Source of the DNA: Candidatus Saccharimonadota bacterium | GTDB lineage: Bacteria; Patescibacteriota; Patescibacteriia; 2-12-FULL-60-25 | Direction of reading: 5' to 3' | NCBI GenBank assembly: GCA_022843095.1 | Contig: JALHOH010000001.1 | Coordinates: forward strand, 180,001 to 212,000 | Length of the DNA stretch: 32,000 nucleotides | Shown here: in pieces, positions 15,445-32,000 of the stretch | How the letters are laid out: every line of letters begins with the position of its first letter | Position numbering within the stretch: position 1 is the stretch's first letter | Notes under the pieces: generated by a model | Told to the model about the DNA's origin: nothing | Database searches by the model: none | Seen by the model: only the letters and a program-made list of their open reading frames with translations | Made by a program: the position numbers and the translations under genes

Positions 15445-15496
15445 TTATCCACGGGATATCCCCAAGTTTGACAACGGCGTGCGACATTGGAATTAT
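15445..15496 (+). promoter_or_regulatory. candidate dnaA promoter with adjacent DnaA box
   Basis: TTATCCACG (15445-15453, 8/9 to TTATCCACA), TTGACA (15468-15473), 17-nt spacer, then AATTAT (15491-15496). This favours ATG 15518 as the dnaA start, because the track's GTG 15479 lies inside the promoter. Confidence 0.4.
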
Positions 15497-15517
15497 CACG
15501 AACGAATCTACGCCCCC

Positions 15518-16924
15518 ATGACTATGGATCTCCAAGCTCTTTGGCAAGCCGCTCTCGGTGAACTGGAACTCACGCTTTCTAAAGCGAACTTCACGACGTG
15601 GTTCAAGAACACGTTCATTTCCTCCTTTGATAATGGCAAGGTCATGGTGTCCGTCCCAAACGCCTTCACGAAATCCTGGTTAGAAAAGAAATACCATGAT
15701 GCGATCTATCGGGCGCTTCGGAATTCTACAACCCAGCCCATTCGAGAAATCCACTACCGCGTGGAAGTGAAGAATACGACCGTTCTTCCAATCGAACCCC
15801 CGTTGCCCGAGCATGCTCCGGTCATGGCAAGCGAACCGACAGCGCCTGCAGCCCCCGCTTATCCTGCAGCACCGGCATCCACCCCCTCGGCGGACGTCGG
15901 GCTGAACCCGCGCTACGTGTTTGAAACGTTCGTGGTGGGCAAAAGCAACGAACTCGCCCATGCGGCGTGCATGGCCGTCTCGACAAAACCCGGGACCGTC
16001 TACAACCCCCTCTTCCTCTATAGTGGAGCCGGGATGGGAAAAACCCACCTTCTGCAAGCCATCGGACATCACATTTTGCAAACAACCCCGGGAGCACGTA
16101 TCCGCTATGTGACCTGCGAGCGTTTTACCAATGAATTCATCCAATTTGTGCGGAGTGGACGTGGGGCGGATTTCAAAGACATGTACCGCACCGTCGATGT
16201 ACTCTTGATCGATGACATTCAGTTTTTGACCGGCAAAGAAGGGACGCAGGAAGAATTCTTCCACACGTTCAACCATCTCCATCAAAACAACAAACAAATC
16301 ATCATCGCCTCCGATCGACCGCCAAAAGACATTCAAGGTCTGGAAAGCCGTCTTCTGACCCGCTTTGAGTGGGGCATGATGGCCGATATCTCAAAGCCGG
16401 ACTTTGAAACCCGTGTCGCTATTCTGCAGGCCAAAGCGCGCGAAAAAAGCTATCACATCGCGACAGAACTACTGCACACCATCGCCGGGGCGATCCAATC
16501 AAATATCCGCGAACTGGAAGGGGCGTTGAACAAAATTATCGCCTACCACCAATTCAAAAACATTCAGCCCACCGTTCAATCCGTTGAACCCTTGCTGCAA
16601 AGTTTTTCCCCGACGATCACAAAGCGCACCATGTCACCTCGAGCGCTGTTGGAAGCCATCGCCCTCTACTACGAGATTTCGATGGAACAGCTCTTGAGCC
16701 AAAGTCGCGAACGTCGCTTTGCCCTTCCGCGACAAATTGCCATGTACCTGCTTCGCGAAGAGATCAAATGTTCCTACCCGGCAATCGGCGGACATGTGGG
16801 AGGCAGAGACCATACCACCGCCATGCATGCCTGCGAAAAAATCGGGAATCTCTGCGCGCAGGATGATCAAATTCGTCAGGACATCAGCACGATTCGTGAA
16901 CGACTCTACACAGGAAGCAAATAG
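15518..16924 (+). CDS. dnaA: chromosomal replication initiator DnaA
   Basis: MTMDLQALWQAALGELELTLSKANFTTWF, Walker A GAGMGKTHLL, LLIDDIQFL, and C-terminal DNA-binding blocks LPRQIAMYLLRE and GGRDHTTAMHACEKI. Confidence 0.97.
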   Translation: MTMDLQALWQAALGELELTLSKANFTTWFKNTFISSFDNGKVMVSVPNAFTKSWLEKKYHDAIYRALRNSTTQPIREIHYRVEVKNTTVLPIEPPLPEHAPVMASEPTAPAAPAYPAAPASTPSADVGLNPRYVFETFVVGKSNELAHAACMAVSTKPGTVYNPLFLYSGAGMGKTHLLQAIGHHILQTTPGARIRYVTCERFTNEFIQFVRSGRGADFKDMYRTVDVLLIDDIQFLTGKEGTQEEFFHTFNHLHQNNKQIIIASDRPPKDIQGLESRLLTRFEWGMMADISKPDFETRVAILQAKAREKSYHIATELLHTIAGAIQSNIRELEGALNKIIAYHQFKNIQPTVQSVEPLLQSFSPTITKRTMSPRALLEAIALYYEISMEQLLSQSRERRFALPRQIAMYLLREEIKCSYPAIGGHVGGRDHTTAMHACEKIGNLCAQDDQIRQDISTIRERLYTGSK

Positions 16925-17272: not shown

Positions 17273-18400
17273 ATGATCTTCGCCTGCACTCAAGAAAATC
17301 TCGCACAAGGACTCGGACTCGTTGGACACATTGCGGGTAAGAATGCGAACCTCCCGATTCTTGGAAACGTACTCATGAAGACGGATGGAGGAAACCTCCG
17401 TCTTTCGACGACAAACCTAGAAATGGCGGTATCCGTCCTCATTCGAGGTCGTGTCGAACAACCAGGAGAATTCACGGTTCCCGCAAAGCTGTTGATGGAA
17501 TACGTCGCATTGCTCCCAAATGGAAAAATCGAACTCATTGTTGACGGCGATGCGTTGGAAATCAAAACCGAAGGAAACACCACCAAGATGAAAGGGATGG
17601 CCGCTGCGGAATACCCGCTTCTCCCAAAGCTCGCGACTGAAGAACCCTACAAACTCGAAGCAGGCGCACTGCGTCAGGCGATCTCGCAGGTCGCGTTCGC
17701 TGTATCCTCTTCAGACTCACGGCCAGAACTTTCGGGGGTGTCCTGCTATTTTCACGGACTTGGAGGACCAAACACCCTTGTCATGGCAGCCACTGACTCC
17801 TATCGCCTCTCAGAACGCGTCATCACCCTCCAGGGAGGCAATACGAAGGAGCAAAAGTGTATTGTGCCCGCGAGAGCCATCCAGGAAGTCGCACGCATCC
17901 TGTCGGCGTATAAGGACGAAATGGCCACACCGGAAGAAGCGTCGTGGTCCATGACGGATTCACAGTTTGTCCTGACATTTGGGAACGTGGAGTTGGTCTC
18001 GCGTCTCATTGAAGGGGCGTTTCCAGATTATCGCCAGATTATCCCCACTCAATTTCGCACGGCGTTCACTGTGACGCGCGGAGAGTTGCAAAAGGCGTTC
18101 AAGGCAGCGAGTCTGTTTTCAAAGCAAGGATTGTTTGATGTGCATGTGGCTGTGGAAAACGGTGCGCTGAAAATTAGTTCTTCGGACACCGGCACCGGTG
18201 CGCATACCACAACCATTGCGCTTGCCGAGTCGGTTGAACCAAATAAAGTCACGTTGAATTATCGGTATGTCTCGGACGGGTTATCGGCTATGGGAACGGA
18301 TACGGTGCGTTTTCAAATGATCGATGGGATGAACCCCGTCGTCATCACGCCGGCGAATGGAGAAGGGTTCCAGTACATCGTGATGCCCATCCGCCAGTAG
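17273..18400 (+). CDS. dnaN: DNA polymerase III beta sliding clamp
   Basis: 375 aa, MIFACTQENLAQGL...NLEMAVS...ATDSYRLSERV...FQYIVMPIRQ. Directly downstream of dnaA. Confidence 0.95.
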   Translation: MIFACTQENLAQGLGLVGHIAGKNANLPILGNVLMKTDGGNLRLSTTNLEMAVSVLIRGRVEQPGEFTVPAKLLMEYVALLPNGKIELIVDGDALEIKTEGNTTKMKGMAAAEYPLLPKLATEEPYKLEAGALRQAISQVAFAVSSSDSRPELSGVSCYFHGLGGPNTLVMAATDSYRLSERVITLQGGNTKEQKCIVPARAIQEVARILSAYKDEMATPEEASWSMTDSQFVLTFGNVELVSRLIEGAFPDYRQIIPTQFRTAFTVTRGELQKAFKAASLFSKQGLFDVHVAVENGALKISSSDTGTGAHTTTIALAESVEPNKVTLNYRYVSDGLSAMGTDTVRFQMIDGMNPVVITPANGEGFQYIVMPIRQ

Positions 18401-22301: not shown

Positions 22302-22332
22302 AAAAACATCCGCCATCGTGCGGATGTTTTTC
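22302..22332. terminator. hairpin terminator shared by the 3D-domain gene (+) and tRNA-Cys (-)
   Basis: AAAAACATCCGC catcgt GCGGATGTTTTT. Confidence 0.65.
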
Positions 22333-22333
22333 T

Positions 22334-22408
22334 TGGAGGCGTGGGCGGGAATTGAACCCGCGCATAGGAGTTTTGCAGACTCCTGCCTTACCACTTGGCT
22401 ACCACGCC
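22334..22408 (-). tRNA. tRNA-Cys (GCA), CCA encoded
   Basis: Reverse complement: GGCGTGGTAGCCAAGTGGTAAGGCAGGAGTCTGCAAAACTCCTATGCGCGGGTTCAATTCCCGCCCACGCCTCCA. Acceptor GGCGTGG/CCACGCC, anticodon arm GGAGT-CTGCAAA-ACTCC, T arm GCGGG-TTCAATT-CCCGC, discriminator U. Confidence 0.93.
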
Positions 22409-26579: not shown

Positions 26580-26597
26580 ATGTTTCACGTGAAACAT
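26580..26597. promoter_or_regulatory. parS: parS site 1 (ParB/Spo0J-binding centromere palindrome)
   Basis: ATGTTTCACGTGAAACAT. The inner 16 bp TGTTTCACGTGAAACA is the fully symmetric form of the parS consensus TGTTNCACGTGAAACA. Confidence 0.85.
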
Positions 26598-26643
26598 TAG
26601 CGTAGTGGTTTCGGTGCGTTCAAGTCCGAAAATATGAATTCGT

Positions 26644-26719
26644 GGGCCGATAGCTCAGTTGGTAGAGCGCTGCATTCGCATTGCAGAGGTCAGGGGTTCG
26701 AATCCCCTTCGGTCCACCA
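26644..26719 (+). tRNA. tRNA-Ala (CGC), CCA encoded
   Basis: GGGCCGA-TA-GCTC-AGTTGGTA-GAGC-G-CTGCA-TTCGCAT-TGCAG-AGGTC-AGGGG-TTCGAAT-CCCCT-TCGGTCC-A-CCA. The G3:U70 Ala identity pair is present. Confidence 0.95.
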
Positions 26720-26725
26720 CGTTGA

Positions 26726-26758
26726 ATACCCAGGTTGAATGACCTGGGTATTTGATTT
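26726..26758 (+). terminator. rho-independent terminator after tRNA-Ala
   Basis: ATACCCAGGT (26726-26735), loop TGAATG, ACCTGGGTAT (26742-26751), then TTGATTT. Confidence 0.7.
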
Positions 26759-27035
26759 CCCAGAAGTTTGCTCCCCCTCATCCGACAAGCTGAATAAATA
26801 CGAGGCCGTCCCTTACACCCCCGTTTCCGGTCTTTATTCGTGGCCTGTTTTTGTGGTCTCTTTTGTGTCTTGAGTGAAGGGCTGGTCTTGGTCGGTATGG
26901 AGCGATCCCGCATTGGGAATCAATGGACTTGCTGGCGGCAAAACGCTGAAAACGGTCAGGTTAATGACGGGAGTTTGATTTTTAATTTTGCAAAACAAGC
27001 ATTTTTTTGACCCATAAATAGATAAAAAATTAATA

Positions 27036-27053
27036 ATGTTTCACGTGAAACAT
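27036..27053. promoter_or_regulatory. parS: parS site 2
   Basis: Identical 18-mer. The palindrome extends to 20 bp (AATGTTTCACGTGAAACATT). Confidence 0.85.
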
Positions 27054-27096
27054 TGTGTTAATGCATTAACAGATAATGTGTCGTAAAAATCTTAGT

Positions 27097-27120
27097 CTTA
27101 TGTTTCACGTGAAACATAAG
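27097..27120. promoter_or_regulatory. parS: parS site 3 (24-bp palindrome)
   Basis: CTTATGTTTCACGTGAAACATAAG. The left flank TTAGTCTTA is shared with site 4. Confidence 0.85.
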
Positions 27121-27180
27121 CGATCGGTTCTTCGATTTTTGATACAAGCCGTTGTTCTAAATACTCGAAAGTAGAAGGAT

Positions 27181-27222
27181 AAAATTAGTCTTATGTTTCA
27201 CGTGAAACATAAGACTAATTTT
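27181..27222. promoter_or_regulatory. parS: parS site 4 embedded in a 42-bp perfect palindrome
   Basis: AAAATTAGTCTTATGTTTCAC|GTGAAACATAAGACTAATTTT. Both arms checked base by base. Confidence 0.85.
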
Positions 27223-27457
27223 TGTAGTGTTCTGAGTGGTTTGTTAGCTCGCATGACTGATGCCTTTGCAGGTTCATTGTCGGCCTTCATGTAACCGGTC
27301 CAACGGTGTATTGAGAGTAAGTGATCCGGCGCTTAGTGAGTTTCGAATGTTTTTGGAATCGTGCGGTTTGAATTGTGGGGTTTGTCGTTCTGTGGTTTTT
27401 GATGGGAAGTGAATTTGTATATTTATCGTGTCTACGGATCAACTGAGTCATAAGCAA

Positions 27458-27475
27458 ATGTTTCACGTGAAACAT
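27458..27475. promoter_or_regulatory. parS: parS site 5
   Basis: Identical 18-mer. The right flank AAGACTATTTTT resembles the right arm of site 4. Confidence 0.85.
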
Positions 27476-27486
27476 AAGACTATTTT

Positions 27487-27633
27487 TGTGGATAAGTCGT
27501 GAATGAAAATGGATGTTTTCGTCTAGATGGAAAATGGAGTCGCGAGTGAAATGGGCATGATTCATATGGATAAATGATAATTAGGAGTCTGACTCGTACA
27601 GAGAGAAATGGATGTGGATAACACTGTAGATAA
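27487..27633 (-). promoter_or_regulatory. DnaA-box cluster (candidate oriC core)
   Basis: On the + strand: TGTGGATAA 27487-27495 (9/9), TATGGATAA 27565-27573 (8/9), TGTGGATAA 27613-27621 (9/9), TGTAGATAA 27625-27633 (8/9). All are in the same orientation (TTATCCACA on the minus strand). AT-rich DNA lies at 27660-27740 and 26975-27035. Confidence 0.6.
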
Positions 27634-27836
27634 CGAAAAGAAGCTGTTCAGATCAGGAAAAGGAGTCATCAGGTTCTATTTTTCTCTAGAAATAAACAAA
27701 TAATATACGAATAAAATATTTTACGACACAATAGGACGAATTGTGAAAAGAAAGATCCTAGGAGAGCTACTAAAACTTTCTAGAGGAGCACGCCGTAGAA
27801 CTCGTGAGCGGTGAAGTCGCGTGTTATACTTTATGC

Positions 27837-28754
27837 ATGCGAATCCCGTACGTGTTTATCGTTCTCCTCGGTTTCCTACCGTTCTCCTTTGCGGTAGCGG
27901 GCATGAGCAGTGTGAATTATCAGATTGACTGGGATAATTTTAATGCGGGTGGATTGGATGCTTCTTCGAGCACGAATTACTCGATGCTGGATACGATCGG
28001 CGATAACGCATCTGGGACTAGTACGAGTGCAAGTTATCAACTATCTGCTGGATATCGAGGGATTGAGGATCAGTCGAGTTTAAGTTTTATTGTAATCACA
28101 CAGGCAAATGGAACGCAGGTGACGTACAGCGCATTTTCAAGCGGTGGAGAAACGGTCACGGTGAGTTCTGCCGCCGGATTTTCGGTGGGTGACTATCTCG
28201 TGGCGGTAGAAAATAAGGGATTTTCTCAGGATATCGCCATGGGAAAAATCACAGACATCTCAGGAAATGTGATTACGGTTGATTATTGGTCGGGAGATCA
28301 TCCCCAGATGAGCGCAGTTCCCGCAGGTGGAAATGACTACGTCTATAAGTTAAGCGGTGTTTCTGCAGAAATGGGGACGGTGACGCAGGGGACGGAGAAT
28401 ACCACGGTCACGATGGCATCCGTTCTTTCAACGGGTTCGACGGGGTACACTGTTTACGCGCATGTGAACCATGCGTTGCAAACCGTGGGTGCGCAGACCA
28501 TCGCGAATGTGGCAGATAGTTTAGTTTCTGTAGGTTCTGAAGAATACGGTGTTGCCACGACGGGGACATCTGCTCTCATGACCGGATCAGACTTTCCGCT
28601 CACAACCTCGCAGCAGGCAATACAAAATCGCGCGAGTGCTACGCCAAACGTAGCGGATCGAATGGGAGTGATCTACAAGTTATCCGTTTCCGCTGCAACG
28701 CAGGCGGGGACGTATACGCAAGACGTCACCTACACACTCACGGTTAATTACTAG
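27837..28754 (+). CDS. secreted protein of unknown function (triple S-x-N/S-Y repeat, pilin/WxL-like C-terminal strand)
   Basis: From ATG 27837: MRIPYVFIVLLGFLPFSFAVAG signal peptide. The track start, GTG 27804, is possible but adds a non-signal-like 11 aa. Ser/Thr/Gly-rich beta-type composition. Ends AGTYTQDVTYTLTVNY. Confidence 0.75.
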   Translation: MRIPYVFIVLLGFLPFSFAVAGMSSVNYQIDWDNFNAGGLDASSSTNYSMLDTIGDNASGTSTSASYQLSAGYRGIEDQSSLSFIVITQANGTQVTYSAFSSGGETVTVSSAAGFSVGDYLVAVENKGFSQDIAMGKITDISGNVITVDYWSGDHPQMSAVPAGGNDYVYKLSGVSAEMGTVTQGTENTTVTMASVLSTGSTGYTVYAHVNHALQTVGAQTIANVADSLVSVGSEEYGVATTGTSALMTGSDFPLTTSQQAIQNRASATPNVADRMGVIYKLSVSAATQAGTYTQDVTYTLTVNY

Positions 28755-28756
28755 GT

Positions 28757-29695
28757 ATGCGCTTCTTTTGGCTTTTGCTTACGGTGGCCTTTGTCGGATT
28801 TCCGCGTATTTCTGAAGCGTTTACCATGTCGCCGACGATGCTGGATGTGTTGGTCCAGCCCGGGGCATCTGCGTCGGCGTATGTCACGATTGGGAATGAT
28901 GAGCGTGAGCCTGCTACGTACTATCTGAGTGTCCAAAAATTTGTTCCAAACGGTGACCAAGGGCAGCAGGAGTTCTTACCACCCACAGAAAAAAGCGGTT
29001 TACCTTCATGGGTGCAGCTCGATCGGGTGAGTGTGACGCTACGACCGGGAGAAATTCGTCGCGTTCCGTTTGAGGTGAAGGTTCCGGCAGGTACACAGCC
29101 GGGCGGATACTACGGTGTTCTGTTCTTTTCAAATGTTCCGCCGGGCTCAAATGCAGACCAATCCATCGTCGCCGGGTCGCGTGCGGGGATGTTGTTATTT
29201 GTTACGGTAAAGGGGGCAATTATTGAAGAAAGTGAGTTGCAAACATTTGAAGTGGATCACATGTGGACCAACCGTTTACCGGTTCTTTTTACGTCTGTTT
29301 TACAGAATAAAGGGAATGCATTTCTGATCCCGCAAGGGTCTGTGACGGTGAAGAATCTCTTTGGACAAACCGTTGCTCAGTTACCATTTAATCCAGAATA
29401 CAAGCGCGTTCTCCCAAATTCGGGTCGTCGTTATACGCAAGCATGGGCAAAACGTACCCCGGAAAATGGTGGGGGATTTTGGTATGAATTAAGCGAGGAA
29501 TGGAAGAATTTTGCATTCGGACGCTATCGTGCGGAATTGCGTATCGTAGGACAAAGCGCAGGAACCATGCATCGAGCAGAAACCGTTATTTACGTGTTTC
29601 CTTGGCGTCTGATGTTGGTCGCAGGTTTCCTGACGGTGTTAATCAGTGTTCCACTTGTGCGGGCACGGCGTGATGCGCGTGCACGGTCGAGCTGA
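28757..29695 (+). CDS. signal-peptide, C-terminally TM-anchored two-domain surface protein (DUF916/DUF3324-like architecture)
   Basis: 312 aa. Signal MRFFWLLLTVAFVGFPRISEA. Ig-like-looking domain patterns (LDVLVQPGASASAYVTIGNDEREPATYYLSVQKF, VSVTLRPGEIRRVPFEVKVPAGTQPGGYYGVLFF). C-terminal TM WRLMLVAGFLTVLISVPLV plus a basic tail RARRDARARSS. Starts 2 nt after the previous stop. Confidence 0.75.
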   Translation: MRFFWLLLTVAFVGFPRISEAFTMSPTMLDVLVQPGASASAYVTIGNDEREPATYYLSVQKFVPNGDQGQQEFLPPTEKSGLPSWVQLDRVSVTLRPGEIRRVPFEVKVPAGTQPGGYYGVLFFSNVPPGSNADQSIVAGSRAGMLLFVTVKGAIIEESELQTFEVDHMWTNRLPVLFTSVLQNKGNAFLIPQGSVTVKNLFGQTVAQLPFNPEYKRVLPNSGRRYTQAWAKRTPENGGGFWYELSEEWKNFAFGRYRAELRIVGQSAGTMHRAETVIYVFPWRLMLVAGFLTVLISVPLVRARRDARARSS

Positions 29696-29713
29696 TCAGG
29701 GTACACTACGCTC

Positions 29714-32000
29714 ATGCGTACGGGACGATTTGTTGCAGCCTTGTTGTGGTCATTTTTTGGTATTGCCATGGTGTTTGCCTCTGCGCTCGCGGCAACGCTC
29801 ACCAGTCGAAGTGATACCATGACGCGCCAGCAGGTGAGTCAATCGTCCAATCATGAAATTCGGTTTACCACACCGACGGGGGTAGATGCACCCACAGATA
29901 CCATTCGGCTCTCGTTTCCGTCTTCGACGTTTTCGCTTAGCGCCATTGGTTTCGGTGACATCGATCTTTTACATGGGGCCGTGACCGGTTTTGAAACGAG
30001 CGAAACATTGGGCGCAACAGCGGCGGCGGGCGTGTGGGGCGTCGCAACGACCTCGCAGACGATTGTTTTTACCCCACCCACGAATGCAGCTCTTGGAGAA
30101 ATCGCGGCCTCGGCAAAGGTCGTGATTCGCATCGGGACAAATGCCTCTGGTGGCGTGGGTCAGATTGTGAATCCAAGCGGATCCGGTAGATTTACCATTT
30201 CTATTGATGGGGGGTTTGGGGATGTGGGAGGCATCGAAGTGCCGATTGTTTCTGGAGACACGGCCGCAGTGTCTGCCACCATCCCTGCAGCAGGAGGTGG
30301 GGGCGGCGGCGGAGGGGGTGGCGGCGGCGCTCCAATTCCAGGAGATACGACAGCACCGCTTATTTCGAATATTCGCGCAGAAGCAATTACGACCTCATCC
30401 GTTCAGATTGCCTGGGATACCGATGAAGCGTCTGACACGAAGGTGGAGTTCGGGATGACGGTCGGGTATGAGCTTGGTGCATCTTCTACGTCGGGTTTGG
30501 TGACCGCGCATCGTATTTGGTTGTCGAACCTGAATCCGAGCACCGTCTATCACTTTCGCGTTTCCTCCAAAGATGCGCAGGCAAACACGGCAACGTCGGC
30601 GGATCAGGTCTTCACGACGCTCGCTATTCCGGCCCCTCCGGTTCTTTCGAATATCCGCGTTCAATCGCTGACCGATGTGTCTGCGGTGGTATTGTGGGAT
30701 ACGGATATTCCCGCGACGACCCGTCTTGAATACGGCCGCGTTGTTCCATACAGCGCAGAGCAATCGATCGCCGGGACACGTACCAGTCACGCGGTGCCAC
30801 TGTCGGGATTGCTTCCTGGAACGACCTATCAGTTTCGTGTTAGCGGGACCAGTACAGCCGCGCTTTTTTCTCAATCGGCAAATCAAACCTTCACAACAGT
30901 GACGGATACCACCCCACCCGCGAATGTGAGTGGACTCGCGGCGTCACCGGGAGACGGGGTTGTGAAATTAACCTGGGTCAATCCGACTGATCCGGATTTT
31001 TCTCGTGTCATCATCGTTGCGCGCACGGATCGCTCGCCCACCGGAATCGCGGATGGACGCGTGGTCTATTCTGGGAATGCCTCGACCGTGACAGACAGCG
31101 GGTTGATTAATGGAGTCACGCAGTTCTATGCCGTGTTCGCCCAGGACGACAAAGGGAATGCGTCGAGCGGTGCTCTGGTTGATGCGACCCCGGTTGGACC
31201 ACCAGCCCCGCCACCAGTGCCGCCTGTTTTGCCTCCACCAGTTCCGGTTCCGACCCCAACGCCCACCCCCGCGCCCCCGAGTGGTCCGGGAGGGACGGTG
31301 ATCACGCCACAGCCGACGCCTGCACCGACACCAGCCCCGACCCCAACGCCTGCACCATCTCCTGCACCAACTCCAACGCCAGCTCCGATCCCGGAACCCA
31401 CGCCAACCCCGACGCCAGAACCGACACCGGATCCAACCCCCATTCCGGTTCCAACGCCAGGCGGGGAGATCGTTCGGATTCAGCCTCAATTTTCCGTTCC
31501 AAATAGCCCTCTTCTTCTTCAGCCAGGAACAACGGGTGAAGTAACTCTGCTTTTTGGGAAGCCTGTCTCAATTTCCGTCCCATCTGCCGGTTTGCCGTCT
31601 CTGCCTGTGCGCGGAGAGATTCAGTTTGGTCGAGATCGGTACGCGCTGACCCCTAGCCCATTAAGTGGTGCGTTCTCCGCCGTGTTTGTCCCGTCGTCGA
31701 TGGGAGCGGTTTCCGCAACGGTTCGGGTGTATTTTACAAACGGCGCGGAAGCGGTCACAACGATTCCGACACGCGTGATTGCGCAGGGCGTGGTACGAGA
31801 GGCCTCTTTGGCGGGTGAAGGTGCACTGATCGCGGATGCAACGGTCACGCTCTACGATGAAGCGGGTCGCGTTTGGAATGCGCGTGCATTTGGCCAACAG
31901 AATCCGGTGGTAACGGGGAAGGAAGGGGTGTTTGGTTGGTATGCGCCGACCGGAGCCTATCGCGTGGTGGCATCGAAGAATGGGTATCAGTTGCAAGAGA
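29714..32000 (+). CDS. large secreted surface protein, 3'-truncated by the window (N-terminal domain, poly-Gly, 3 FN3-like repeats, Pro/Thr linker, CarboxypepD_reg-like region)
   Basis: Not in the ORF track. I translated frame +2 codon by codon from ATG 29714 to 31999 and found no stop (over 762 codons). Signal [28 protein letters not shown]3-type repeats such as [31 protein letters not shown]...[10 protein letters not shown]. All minus-strand track ORFs here are shadows. Confidence 0.85.

Follow-up and report, generated by a model that had tools for sequence, protein, structure and literature searches.

Patescibacteria, also called candidate phyla radiation (CPR) bacteria, are monoderm and are thought to live attached to host cells, although the mechanism of this contact is mostly unclear. 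The first CPR-specific filament with a known structure is the Pam pilus, known from a preprint of 2026 (Troman et al., bioRxiv 10.64898/2026.03.03.709456) for Candidatus Mycosynbacter amalyticus and other Saccharimonadia/Microgenomatia. Cryo-electron microscopy revealed that the pilins PamA and PamB each comprise an N-domain and a truncated Ig-like C-domain with a linker strand between them, and that they are joined by donor-strand exchange, the donor strand being the inter-domain linker and not an N-terminal extension. AlphaFold-based proposals in the same work add transmembrane (TM)-anchored PapD-like chaperones (PamC and PamD), a tip pilin (PamT) and an FnIII/TM anchor (PamR), and the neighbourhood of the pam locus with ATP-synthase genes is conserved (bioRxiv 10.64898/2026.03.03.709456). 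Curated models for PamR (NF058578), PamT (NF058579) and the pilin C-terminal domain (CPR_Pam_pilin_C, NF058581) were taken from NCBIfam release 20. Two other systems invite comparison, namely the csc/WxL clusters of Firmicutes, which are defined by the presence of at least two proteins with a WxL domain (PMC10599100), and the chaperone-usher pili (Pap/Fim, CFA/I and Csu). Here we describe three adjacent genes for secreted proteins, A, B and C (positions 27837-32000), in a stretch of 32,000 nucleotides, referred to below as the window (contig JALHOH010000001.1, positions 180,001 to 212,000), of a Candidatus Uhrbacteria-like genome (Patescibacteria, Parcubacteria group). The cluster probably encodes a reduced, divergent Pam-type donor-strand surface-fibre system. 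A preliminary description had called it an uncharacterised and perhaps undescribed module, labels that do not hold now that the Pam pilus has been reported in the preprint and its components are represented by curated NCBIfam models.

Organization and conservation of the gene cluster

The three genes lie on the forward strand. Gene A (27837-28754) is an open reading frame (ORF) of 305 amino acids (aa) for a putative PamT-like tip subunit, gene B (28757-29695) is an ORF of 312 aa for a predicted membrane-anchored two-domain PapD-like chaperone, and gene C (29714-32000) runs off the end of the window, with 762 codons visible of about 1,100, and would encode a giant stalk protein. An alternative GTG start at 27804 would give A the 316-aa form found in NCBI (P0016). 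Only 2 nt (28755-28756) separate A from B and 18 nt (29696-29713) separate B from C, spacings that indicate co-transcription. Each of the three N-termini shows a basic residue, then hydrophobic residues and a cleavage motif of small residues, giving signal peptides of MRIPYVFIVLLGFLPFSFAVAG for A (cleavage before MSS), MRFFWLLLTVAFVGFPRISEA for B (cleavage before FTM) and 26 residues for C (cleavage before ATL). The three co-oriented signal-peptide genes with gaps of 2 and 18 nt that the preliminary description had reported are therefore borne out by the ORFs and their sequences.

Many homologues were found for each of the three proteins. In related Patescibacteria loci, gathered by a search with 11 closer sequences, tblastn found A, B and C one after another in this order in about 34 of 40 cases, at identities down to 19-35%, and because of these homologues and this conserved order we regard all three as real genes; co-conservation had been proposed at the outset as a check on the cluster. 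In these loci the genes mostly lie 2.5-5 kb downstream of polA (tblastn). The relatives are nearly all Candidatus Uhrbacteria or unnamed Patescibacteria metagenome-assembled genomes (MAGs), their NCBI lineage being Patescibacteria group; Parcubacteria group; Ca. Uhriibacteriota. It could be argued that three functionally unrelated secreted-protein genes have come to lie together by chance, as neither A nor B has an above-threshold Pfam family, no family links all three, and a promoter and terminator scan of 27400-32000 gave counts at background with no intergenic regulatory feature rising above it. Such an explanation is, however, already contradicted by the synteny just described, and by spacings that point to a single transcript. 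In addition, a homologous gene pair occurs together in canonical pam operons and, as described below, a gene fusion joins part of A with C-like domains. We consider chance adjacency very improbable.

Many of the contigs with related loci (L004, L010, L012, L013, L019, L021, L022, L025, L026, L028, L029, L031, L032, L036, L037 and L041) are labelled 'uncultured Gammaproteobacteria', 'Methylococcaceae' or 'Anaerolineales'. They carry an Uhrbacteria-type locus, with a polA that is 42-60% identical and at the same position where the contig reaches upstream, and appear to be MAG contigs that were mislabelled or mis-binned, and not evidence of the system outside Patescibacteria.

Gene A: a PamT-like subunit with an inserted domain

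The A protein can be divided into a signal peptide (residues 1-22, 27837-27902), an N-terminal segment defined by conservation and shared with canonical PamT and short PamT-like proteins (residues 23-84, 27903-28088), an inserted domain (residues 85-170, 28089-28346) and a C-terminal Pam pilin domain (residues 171-305, 28347-28751). Against the NCBIfam PamT model A gave E=1e-11 and 44.6 bits, with residues 8-121 on model positions 13-117. Across the A family, 39 of 40 members match PamT and 20 of 40 match CPR_Pam_pilin_C (best E=1e-10). Comparison of the A family with two-domain Pam pilins by hhalign gave 97.9% and E=3.5e-13 over residues 171-305, aligned through the last residue. The N-terminal segment and the C-terminal domain are also common to A and the canonical PamT proteins of two Saccharimonadia pam operons (L045 and L043). 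By contrast the insert, which appears as a gap in the alignment with canonical PamT and is modelled with a predicted local distance difference test (pLDDT) score above 90, was found only in the Uhrbacteria family; neither canonical PamT nor the short PamT-like proteins have it. The latter came to light when the A-family profile was searched against 1.84 billion representative proteins, giving 2,748 clusters at E<=1e-3; many of the matches are proteins of 210-240 aa that cover profile positions 1-88 and 171-306 and skip the middle. These short relatives are PamT-like and, as with A itself, fall under the PamT cut-off. The neighbourhood of one of them (P0296) has large flanking proteins and no obvious chaperone. 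Judged by its sequence, A is best described as a remote PamT-like homologue with an insertion, not as a PamT equivalog.

The mature protein begins with M-S-S-x-N-Y, a start that is conserved across the aligned family, and the segment 23-84 consists of three degenerate repeats of about 20 residues (S-x-N/S-Y-x-[ILM]...G) with alternating hydrophobic residues. No other part of the family is so well conserved, but in the AlphaFold2 monomer model the segment has no structure: pLDDT is below 50 for residues 16-31 and 33-75 and above 90 for residues 80-305. The C-terminal end reads ...YTQDVTYTLTVNY, and the final strand, G-T-Y-T-Q-D-V-T-Y-T-L-T-V-N-Y, contains the alternating-hydrophobic VTYTLTVNY to which the preliminary description had drawn attention. 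In the family alignment this strand shows alternating hydrophobics and ends in an aromatic residue, with an invariant Gly 14 residues from the end, a pattern which may echo the C-terminal motif of classical chaperone-usher pilins.

With the A model, a Foldseek search of the PDB gave E=1.2e-3 at best, which is not a strong match. Pilins and tip adhesins of chaperone-usher systems nevertheless predominate among the matches, with CfaE, CfaB, CsuA/B, CsuE, the PapG pilin domain, PapA and FimA. Separate weak matches of about 90-100 residues to phage tailspike and depolymerase modules were assigned to the inserted domain because of their length and separate alignment. The A profile searched against PDB sequences gave only weak matches, to phage tail-tube proteins, and these too cover the inserted domain. 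With Pfam, A gave no match at E<=1, by which its identification as a WxL, TasA/camelysin or SCPU protein, all candidates raised earlier, is ruled out. In the case of WxL the negative result extends to C, for which no WxL domain was found in Pfam at E<=1, and no WxL chain stands among the top 50 PDB matches of A; the suggestion that A is a WxL-like subunit is accordingly given up in favour of a PamT-like one.

Gene B: a membrane-anchored chaperone homologue

The AlphaFold2 model of B (pLDDT 87.9) has two beta-sandwich domains followed by a C-terminal helix (residues 283-311) and the basic sequence RRDARAR, in agreement with the two domains and single C-terminal TM anchor first described. Domain 1 is DUF916-like (residues 22-151, 28820-29209, delimited by the secondary structure and pLDDT of the model; the Pfam match to PF06030 covers residues 30-124), domain 2 is a further beta-sandwich (residues 159-280, 29231-29596), and the TM helix with its basic tail corresponds to 29603-29689. 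The hydrophobic stretch and basic tail are kept in 15 of 15 homologues. Between strands 116-125 (GGYYGVLFFS) and 142-151 (RAGMLLFVTV) of domain 1 lies a low-confidence loop (residues 126-141); the strand motif R-A-G-M-L-L-F-V-T-V is conserved and G153 is invariant. The loop and strand 142-151 may resemble the F1-G1 loop and G1 donor strand of PapD-like chaperones.

The best structural match of B (Foldseek) is the WxL-interacting protein (WxLIP) of Enterococcus faecium in a complex with a long WxL protein (9i25_C, E=4e-13), with 9i1y also found. Next come the chaperones CfaA, CsuC, DraB, SafB, Caf1M and CupB2 with probability 1.00 and E values of 1e-9 to 2e-7. At the sequence level B matches Pfam PF06030 (WxLIP_PGBD/DUF916) with 21.2 bits and E=3e-4, the gathering score being 27.3, and the B-family profile finds the PDB sequence of EfmWxLIP1 with E=7e-5. 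The second domain gave no match to Pfam DUF3324. Of the DUF916/DUF3324-like partner first described, it is the anchored, DUF916-type character that these matches support.

A search with the B-family alignment reached 658 proteins, most of them of about 330 aa and carrying PF06030. Among these is the chaperone gene product (P0179) of the canonical pam operon L045, which lies beside ATP-synthase genes and encodes PamT (277 bits), two pilins with Pam_pilin_C, the chaperone and PamR (408 bits). B is 26% identical to P0179 over 280 aa (BLASTP, E=6e-18), and a B-family hidden Markov model (HMM) built without the bridging sequence found the canonical pam chaperone with E=3.6e-46. As the canonical L045 chaperone itself matches no NCBIfam model, membership of B in the PamC/PamD group was judged by homology to this operon gene. 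A further Patescibacteria lineage (L048) has a B-family chaperone close to a protein of 808 aa, the C-terminus of which matches Pam_pilin_C with 104.8 bits; beside a distant B-family member (L049) there is no recognisable pilin. We conclude that B is a two-domain TM-anchored PapD-like chaperone homologue of the DUF916/WxLIP superfamily (PamC/PamD-like), and that it is a member of this superfamily and not a canonical WxLIP.

These matches bear on the possibility that the locus specifies a static complex like those of the WxL/Csc systems, in which B would be a permanent anchor that displays A, and C an independent, co-expressed large adhesin. Support for such a complex comes from the E. faecium WxLIP being the best match of B both in structure (including the WxL-bound entry) and among PDB sequences, from the match of the TM-anchored B protein to WxLIP_PGBD/DUF916, and from the mirroring of csc/WxL clusters by the gene trio (PMC10599100). 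However, a WxL domain or a pair of W-x-L motifs is found in neither A nor C, the C-terminal domain of A is a Pam pilin domain, the second domain of B gave no DUF3324 match, and a WxL cluster by definition needs at least two WxL proteins (PMC10599100). The similarity of B to the chaperones of pam operons (E=6e-18 pairwise) is moreover far greater than that to the WxLIP of Firmicutes (E~1e-4). Taken together we regard the static complex as unlikely, and slightly more so than the polymer of A considered below.

Gene C: a giant stalk protein

The visible part of C amounts to about two-thirds of the protein, full-length orthologues being 1,075-1,165 aa. It begins with an N-terminal domain conserved in 35 orthologues (residues 27-193, 29792-30292), at the end of which lies a candidate donor (linker) strand, A-A-V-S-A-T-I-P (residues 184-191, 30263-30286). 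A hinge of 12 glycines follows (residues 194-205, 30293-30328), the Gly run being kept in orthologues, and then three FN3-like repeats (residues ~211-493, 30344-31192; Pfam fn3/Pur_ac_phosph_N, E~1e-12, the third repeat read from the sequence), a Pro/Thr-rich spacer recognised in the translation (residues ~494-577, 31193-31444) and, by translation and comparison with orthologues, a further beta-sandwich region that is cut by the window end (31445-32000). The earlier picture of a protein of more than 760 aa with FN3-like repeats (fn3, E=1e-12) and a Pro/Thr stalk is thus confirmed. In full-length orthologues Pfam recognised fn3 two to three times, CarboxypepD_reg three times, and SdrD_B, bMG3 and NOMO-like domains, in the order N-terminal domain, poly-Gly, FN3, Pro/Thr spacer, CarboxypepD_reg, and SdrD_B/bMG3-like and NOMO-like beta-sandwiches.

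No match to the N-terminal domain was found in Pfam or among PDB sequences. When it was compared with four canonical Saccharimonadia two-domain pilins (hhalign), 142 collinear columns were aligned with 61.8% and E=7.7e-5, from the mature N-terminus (pilin side AAEVQPRSLTMS) to the linker strand (AVSATIPAA against LGVQVEVPPY), while the controls gave 0.2% with the A family and 0.5% with the B family. This part of C may therefore correspond to a Pam pilin N-domain with its donor strand, which we treat as a moderate lead from sequence comparison.

Two conserved hydrophobic/polybasic segments, each with a CarboxypepD_reg-like domain after it, are common to twelve C orthologues. One is ...FNLLNYLQFLFTQPxLLFxRRKRxKWG..., near residue 810-850, and the other ...YLLFRRLAxPxKPKxWG..., near residue 1000. 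As known from the orthologues, the segments would lie about 60-90 codons past position 32000. They are probably transmembrane, and C is probably membrane-anchored. A reading of C as a protein without a membrane anchor, suggested by an extreme C-terminus that is not hydrophobic, was withdrawn in view of these conserved internal segments. C gave no match to PamR (NF058578, cut-off 300 bits) at E<=1, whereas canonical PamR proteins score 406-408 bits; given its FN3 repeats and hydrophobic/polybasic segments, C may nevertheless be a functional analogue of PamR.

Natural variants of the locus in related lineages

Two natural variants have a bearing on how A and C might fit together. In a sister subclade (L014, L016-L018, L020 and L024) an extra gene, A' (326-359 aa), lies between A and B, at L014:11061-12116, L016:11086-12165, L017:11133-12113, L018:11119-12129, L020:11022-12083 and L024:6825-7877; no such gene occurs in the clade of the window. 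A' is a two-domain Pam pilin that matches Pam_pilin_C end to end (E~1e-11) and aligns with Saccharimonadia pilins including the V-x-V-T-A-x-V-P linker, so that in these genomes tip, shaft, chaperone and base stand together in one operon and A' could polymerise between tip and base. The second variant is a single ORF in a Candidatus Liptonbacteria contig of only 3 kb (JAZDLT010000005.1, L040:879-3024). It starts with the A signal peptide and N-terminal segment (54% identity, E=1e-21) and continues with FN3 repeats, spacers rich in Cys and a stalk resembling that of C, in which the hydrophobic/RRKRK segment is present (E=4e-23); the C-terminal domain of A and the N-terminal domain of C are both missing. 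This is a Rosetta-stone fusion which puts the N-terminal segment of A at the distal end of an anchored stalk and drops exactly the two domains that we propose as the non-covalent joint between A and C. Together the A' subclade and the fusion lend support to a physical link between A and C.

The same variants speak to an alternative in which A itself forms the shaft, one of the three strand-like N-terminal repeats of an A subunit complementing the groove of the next (as in Pap/Fim) to give a homopolymer, with B as chaperone and C as a separate adhesin or base. A highly conserved segment of alternating hydrophobic repeats that nevertheless models with pLDDT below 50 in the monomer has the typical look of a donor strand, and in the window, as in most Uhrbacteria loci, no pilin-like gene other than A is present. 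On the other hand canonical PamT has the same segment and is modelled in the preprint as a tip that does not polymerise, the Liptonbacteria segment is fused to the stalk without an acceptor domain, and the presence in the sister subclade of a dedicated two-domain A' with the canonical linker strand suggests that A is not the shaft. A homopolymer of A therefore seems improbable to us.

A model for assembly of the A, B and C proteins

Starting from the observed gene structure, the homologies of A and B and the conservation of all three genes together, we infer for a Pam-type surface fibre the following roles of B as chaperone, of an A-C joint and of A in adhesion. Sec would export A, B and C, as their signal peptides imply. 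B, held in the membrane by its C-terminal helix, would lend a strand to the incomplete Ig-like C-terminal domain of A in the manner of PapD/FimC and PamC/PamD, a step that is drawn from homology and fold. C would form a stalk of about 800 extracellular residues, anchored by the hydrophobic/polybasic segments in its last third and presenting at its distal N-terminus the pilin-like domain that ends in the strand AVSATIP. With moderate support, this strand would displace that of B in the groove of A (donor-strand exchange) and so lock A on the tip of C. The N-terminal repeats and inserted domain of A would then be outermost and, more speculatively, would contact the host or a surface. Indirect support for donor-strand assembly at this locus may be seen in the predicted disorder of the A N-terminus in the monomer model and in the alignment of C with the pilin linker strand. 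Since there is no shaft pilin within 32 kb, the product would be a capped single-chain fibre and not a polymeric pilus. The general idea with which the preliminary description began, assembly of a surface fibre or complex on a chaperone and donor-strand principle, agrees with the Pam pilin domain of A and the chaperone-usher chaperone fold of B.

A narrower version of the Pam-type reading, which we put forward tentatively as a possibility, is a minimal 'snap-on tip', i.e. a separately secreted PamT-like tip with a putative binding domain that is donor-strand-locked onto one anchored stalk of about 1,100 aa, with no polymeric shaft and with a WxLIP-type chaperone catalysing the step. If this were true, B-type proteins would unite the WxL/Csc complexes of Firmicutes, the Pam pili of CPR bacteria and the chaperone-usher pili of Gram-negative bacteria in one ancient strand-complementation assembly family, of which the membrane-anchored chaperone would be the monoderm form.

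Several points weigh against a Pam-type system at this locus. For A, the PamT score of 44.6 bits is below the equivalog cut-off of 240 (NF058579), on which canonical PamT scores 278-297 bits; the window's own A has no match to NF058581 at E<=1 (curated cut-off 55 bits), so that the proposed homology of its C-terminal domain is one of family-level profiles; and the N-terminal segment of A could be the donor strand instead. For C, the match to the pilins stands at only 62% with four sequences, comparison with the six Uhrbacteria A' pilins alone gave 3.8% with a different region aligned, and the TM nature and topology were read by eye from the sequence of segments that lie outside the window. At the level of the locus, no two-domain shaft pilin of the PamA, PamB or PamE type was found in the 32-kb window, where only A matches a pilin HMM, and there is no PamR at the locus; in the absence of PamA/PamB shaft pilins and PamR, 'pilus' may be the wrong word. 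Three defining features of the Pam system as curated are thus lacking here: a PamT score at the equivalog level, shaft pilins at the locus, and PamR. Finally, the chaperone action, the PamT tip and the PamR base of the described system are themselves predictions of the preprint and not experimental results (bioRxiv 10.64898/2026.03.03.709456).

Surroundings of the cluster

Ten large ORFs of the window were scanned with Pfam. They include ftsK, recA, a comEC-like competence-protein gene, a UDP-glucose dehydrogenase gene, ychF, dnaA, dnaN and a penicillin-binding protein gene, and among the ten there is no gene for a sortase, an outer-membrane usher, a type IV pilus or ATP synthase, in line with the earlier remark that neither sortase nor usher was visible; the called-gene lists of L001 likewise contain no usher. 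The polA gene of the window was identified through homologues and lies upstream in the related Uhrbacteria loci too. As called from a GTG at 22318, the polA ORF starts over an opposite-strand tRNA-Cys gene (22334-22408), and as the first 30 or so codons ('...WAGIEPA...') are translated tRNA, the true start must be further downstream. The homologues of polA align from about residue 60-80 of the called ORF.

Between the tRNA genes and gene A, the AT-rich intergenic DNA (26580-27475) contains five exact copies of an 18-bp perfect palindrome, ATGTTTCACGTGAAACAT (CACGTG core), at 26580, 27036, 27100, 27193 and 27458, where the number expected by chance is zero. The palindrome could be a repeated regulator-binding site or an element like the repetitive extragenic palindromes. 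Four DnaA-box-like sites (27487-27633), two of them perfect TTATCCACA, lie directly upstream of gene A, where the GC content is 38.6%. The dnaA (15479-16924) and dnaN (17273-18400) genes are about 10 kb from this cluster, and the minimum of the cumulative GC skew falls at dnaA/dnaN. Either the DnaA-box cluster or the dnaA/dnaN region may be the replication origin.

On the other side of the cluster, in the part that corresponds to sequence beyond the window, the related loci always have downstream of C a gene for a signal-peptide protein that contains LVIVD repeats and is very large (up to 4,604 aa), and in several of them a gene for a TPR-repeat protein of about 800 aa comes after it (examples of these genes are L001:14785-20957, L028:15536-19465 and L022:18351-20813). 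The LVIVD-repeat and TPR-repeat proteins may be part of the same surface module.

Comparison with known systems

The resemblance to csc/WxL clusters that was first proposed for the locus is real at the level of B and of gene layout. Both B and WxLIP have a signal peptide, two Ig-like domains and a C-terminal TM helix, similarity between them is detectable in sequence, and WxLIP is the best structural match of B; both loci group a small secreted protein, an anchored partner and a large surface protein (PMC10599100), and for both it has been proposed that a strand of the anchored protein inserts into its partner. They differ in that WxLIP is made up of DUF916 (PGBD), DUF3324 (HBD) and a TM helix, whereas domain 2 of B has no DUF3324 match. 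There is also no LPXTG protein here, and the partner A has an incomplete Ig domain of the pilin type. WxLIP is moreover thought to be a permanent anchor that binds peptidoglycan and host, not a transient assembly chaperone. As there are no WxL proteins, at least two of which belong to the definition (PMC10599100), the locus is not a csc/WxL cluster. The Pam chaperones and the WxL-interacting proteins of enterococci, listeriae and lactobacilli are nonetheless members of the same superfamily, which suggests that WxL/Csc complexes may also use strand complementation. The Pam preprint makes no mention of WxL, DUF916 or Uhrbacteria (bioRxiv 10.64898/2026.03.03.709456), and we did not find a link between Pam and WxL/DUF916 discussed in the searchable literature.

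With the chaperone-usher pili (Pap/Fim, CFA/I and Csu) the locus shares the PapD-like two-domain fold of B, a similarity at the level of fold only, the weak matches of the C-terminal domain of A to CfaE, CfaB, CsuA/B, the PapG pilin domain, PapA and FimA, and the layout of A as an extra domain plus a pilin domain, which is like that of the tip adhesins CfaE and FimH. In contrast to those pili, usher and outer membrane are both missing here, B is a membrane-anchored chaperone and not a soluble one, there is no significant sequence similarity, and the Pam donor strand is a linker and not an N-terminal extension. In view of the missing usher the locus is not a chaperone-usher system.

The closest counterpart remains the Pam pilus. 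In both cases all components have Sec signal peptides, there is neither usher nor sortase, the two-domain PapD-like chaperone ends in a TM helix (B being homologous to the pam-operon chaperone), one subunit has the PamT N-terminal segment and a Pam pilin C-terminal domain, an FN3-containing protein that is, or for C probably is, membrane-anchored follows the chaperone gene (PamR there, C here), and the organism is a CPR bacterium. The differences are the 86-residue domain inserted in A with its PamT score below the cut-off, the single chaperone gene, and C in place of PamR: PamR is a protein of about 300 aa with a bare N-terminal strand and a C-terminal TM helix (RbmA-like, two FnIII domains), whereas C is about 1,100 aa with a putative pilin-like N-terminal domain and internal hydrophobic segments. 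The locus also lies beside polA, tRNA genes and the DnaA-box region instead of ATP synthase as in the canonical L045, and its lineage is Uhrbacteria (Parcubacteria group). The Pam toolkit of a PamT-like subunit and an anchored DUF916-type chaperone would thus extend into the Parcubacteria group and be reducible to three components (tip, chaperone and a single giant stalk protein), and a tip subunit able to gain an extra domain would be a candidate determinant of host specificity. On the reading that we favour, the locus is homologous to the Pam system and works like it; what is new is its reduced and rearranged architecture and its Uhrbacteria lineage.

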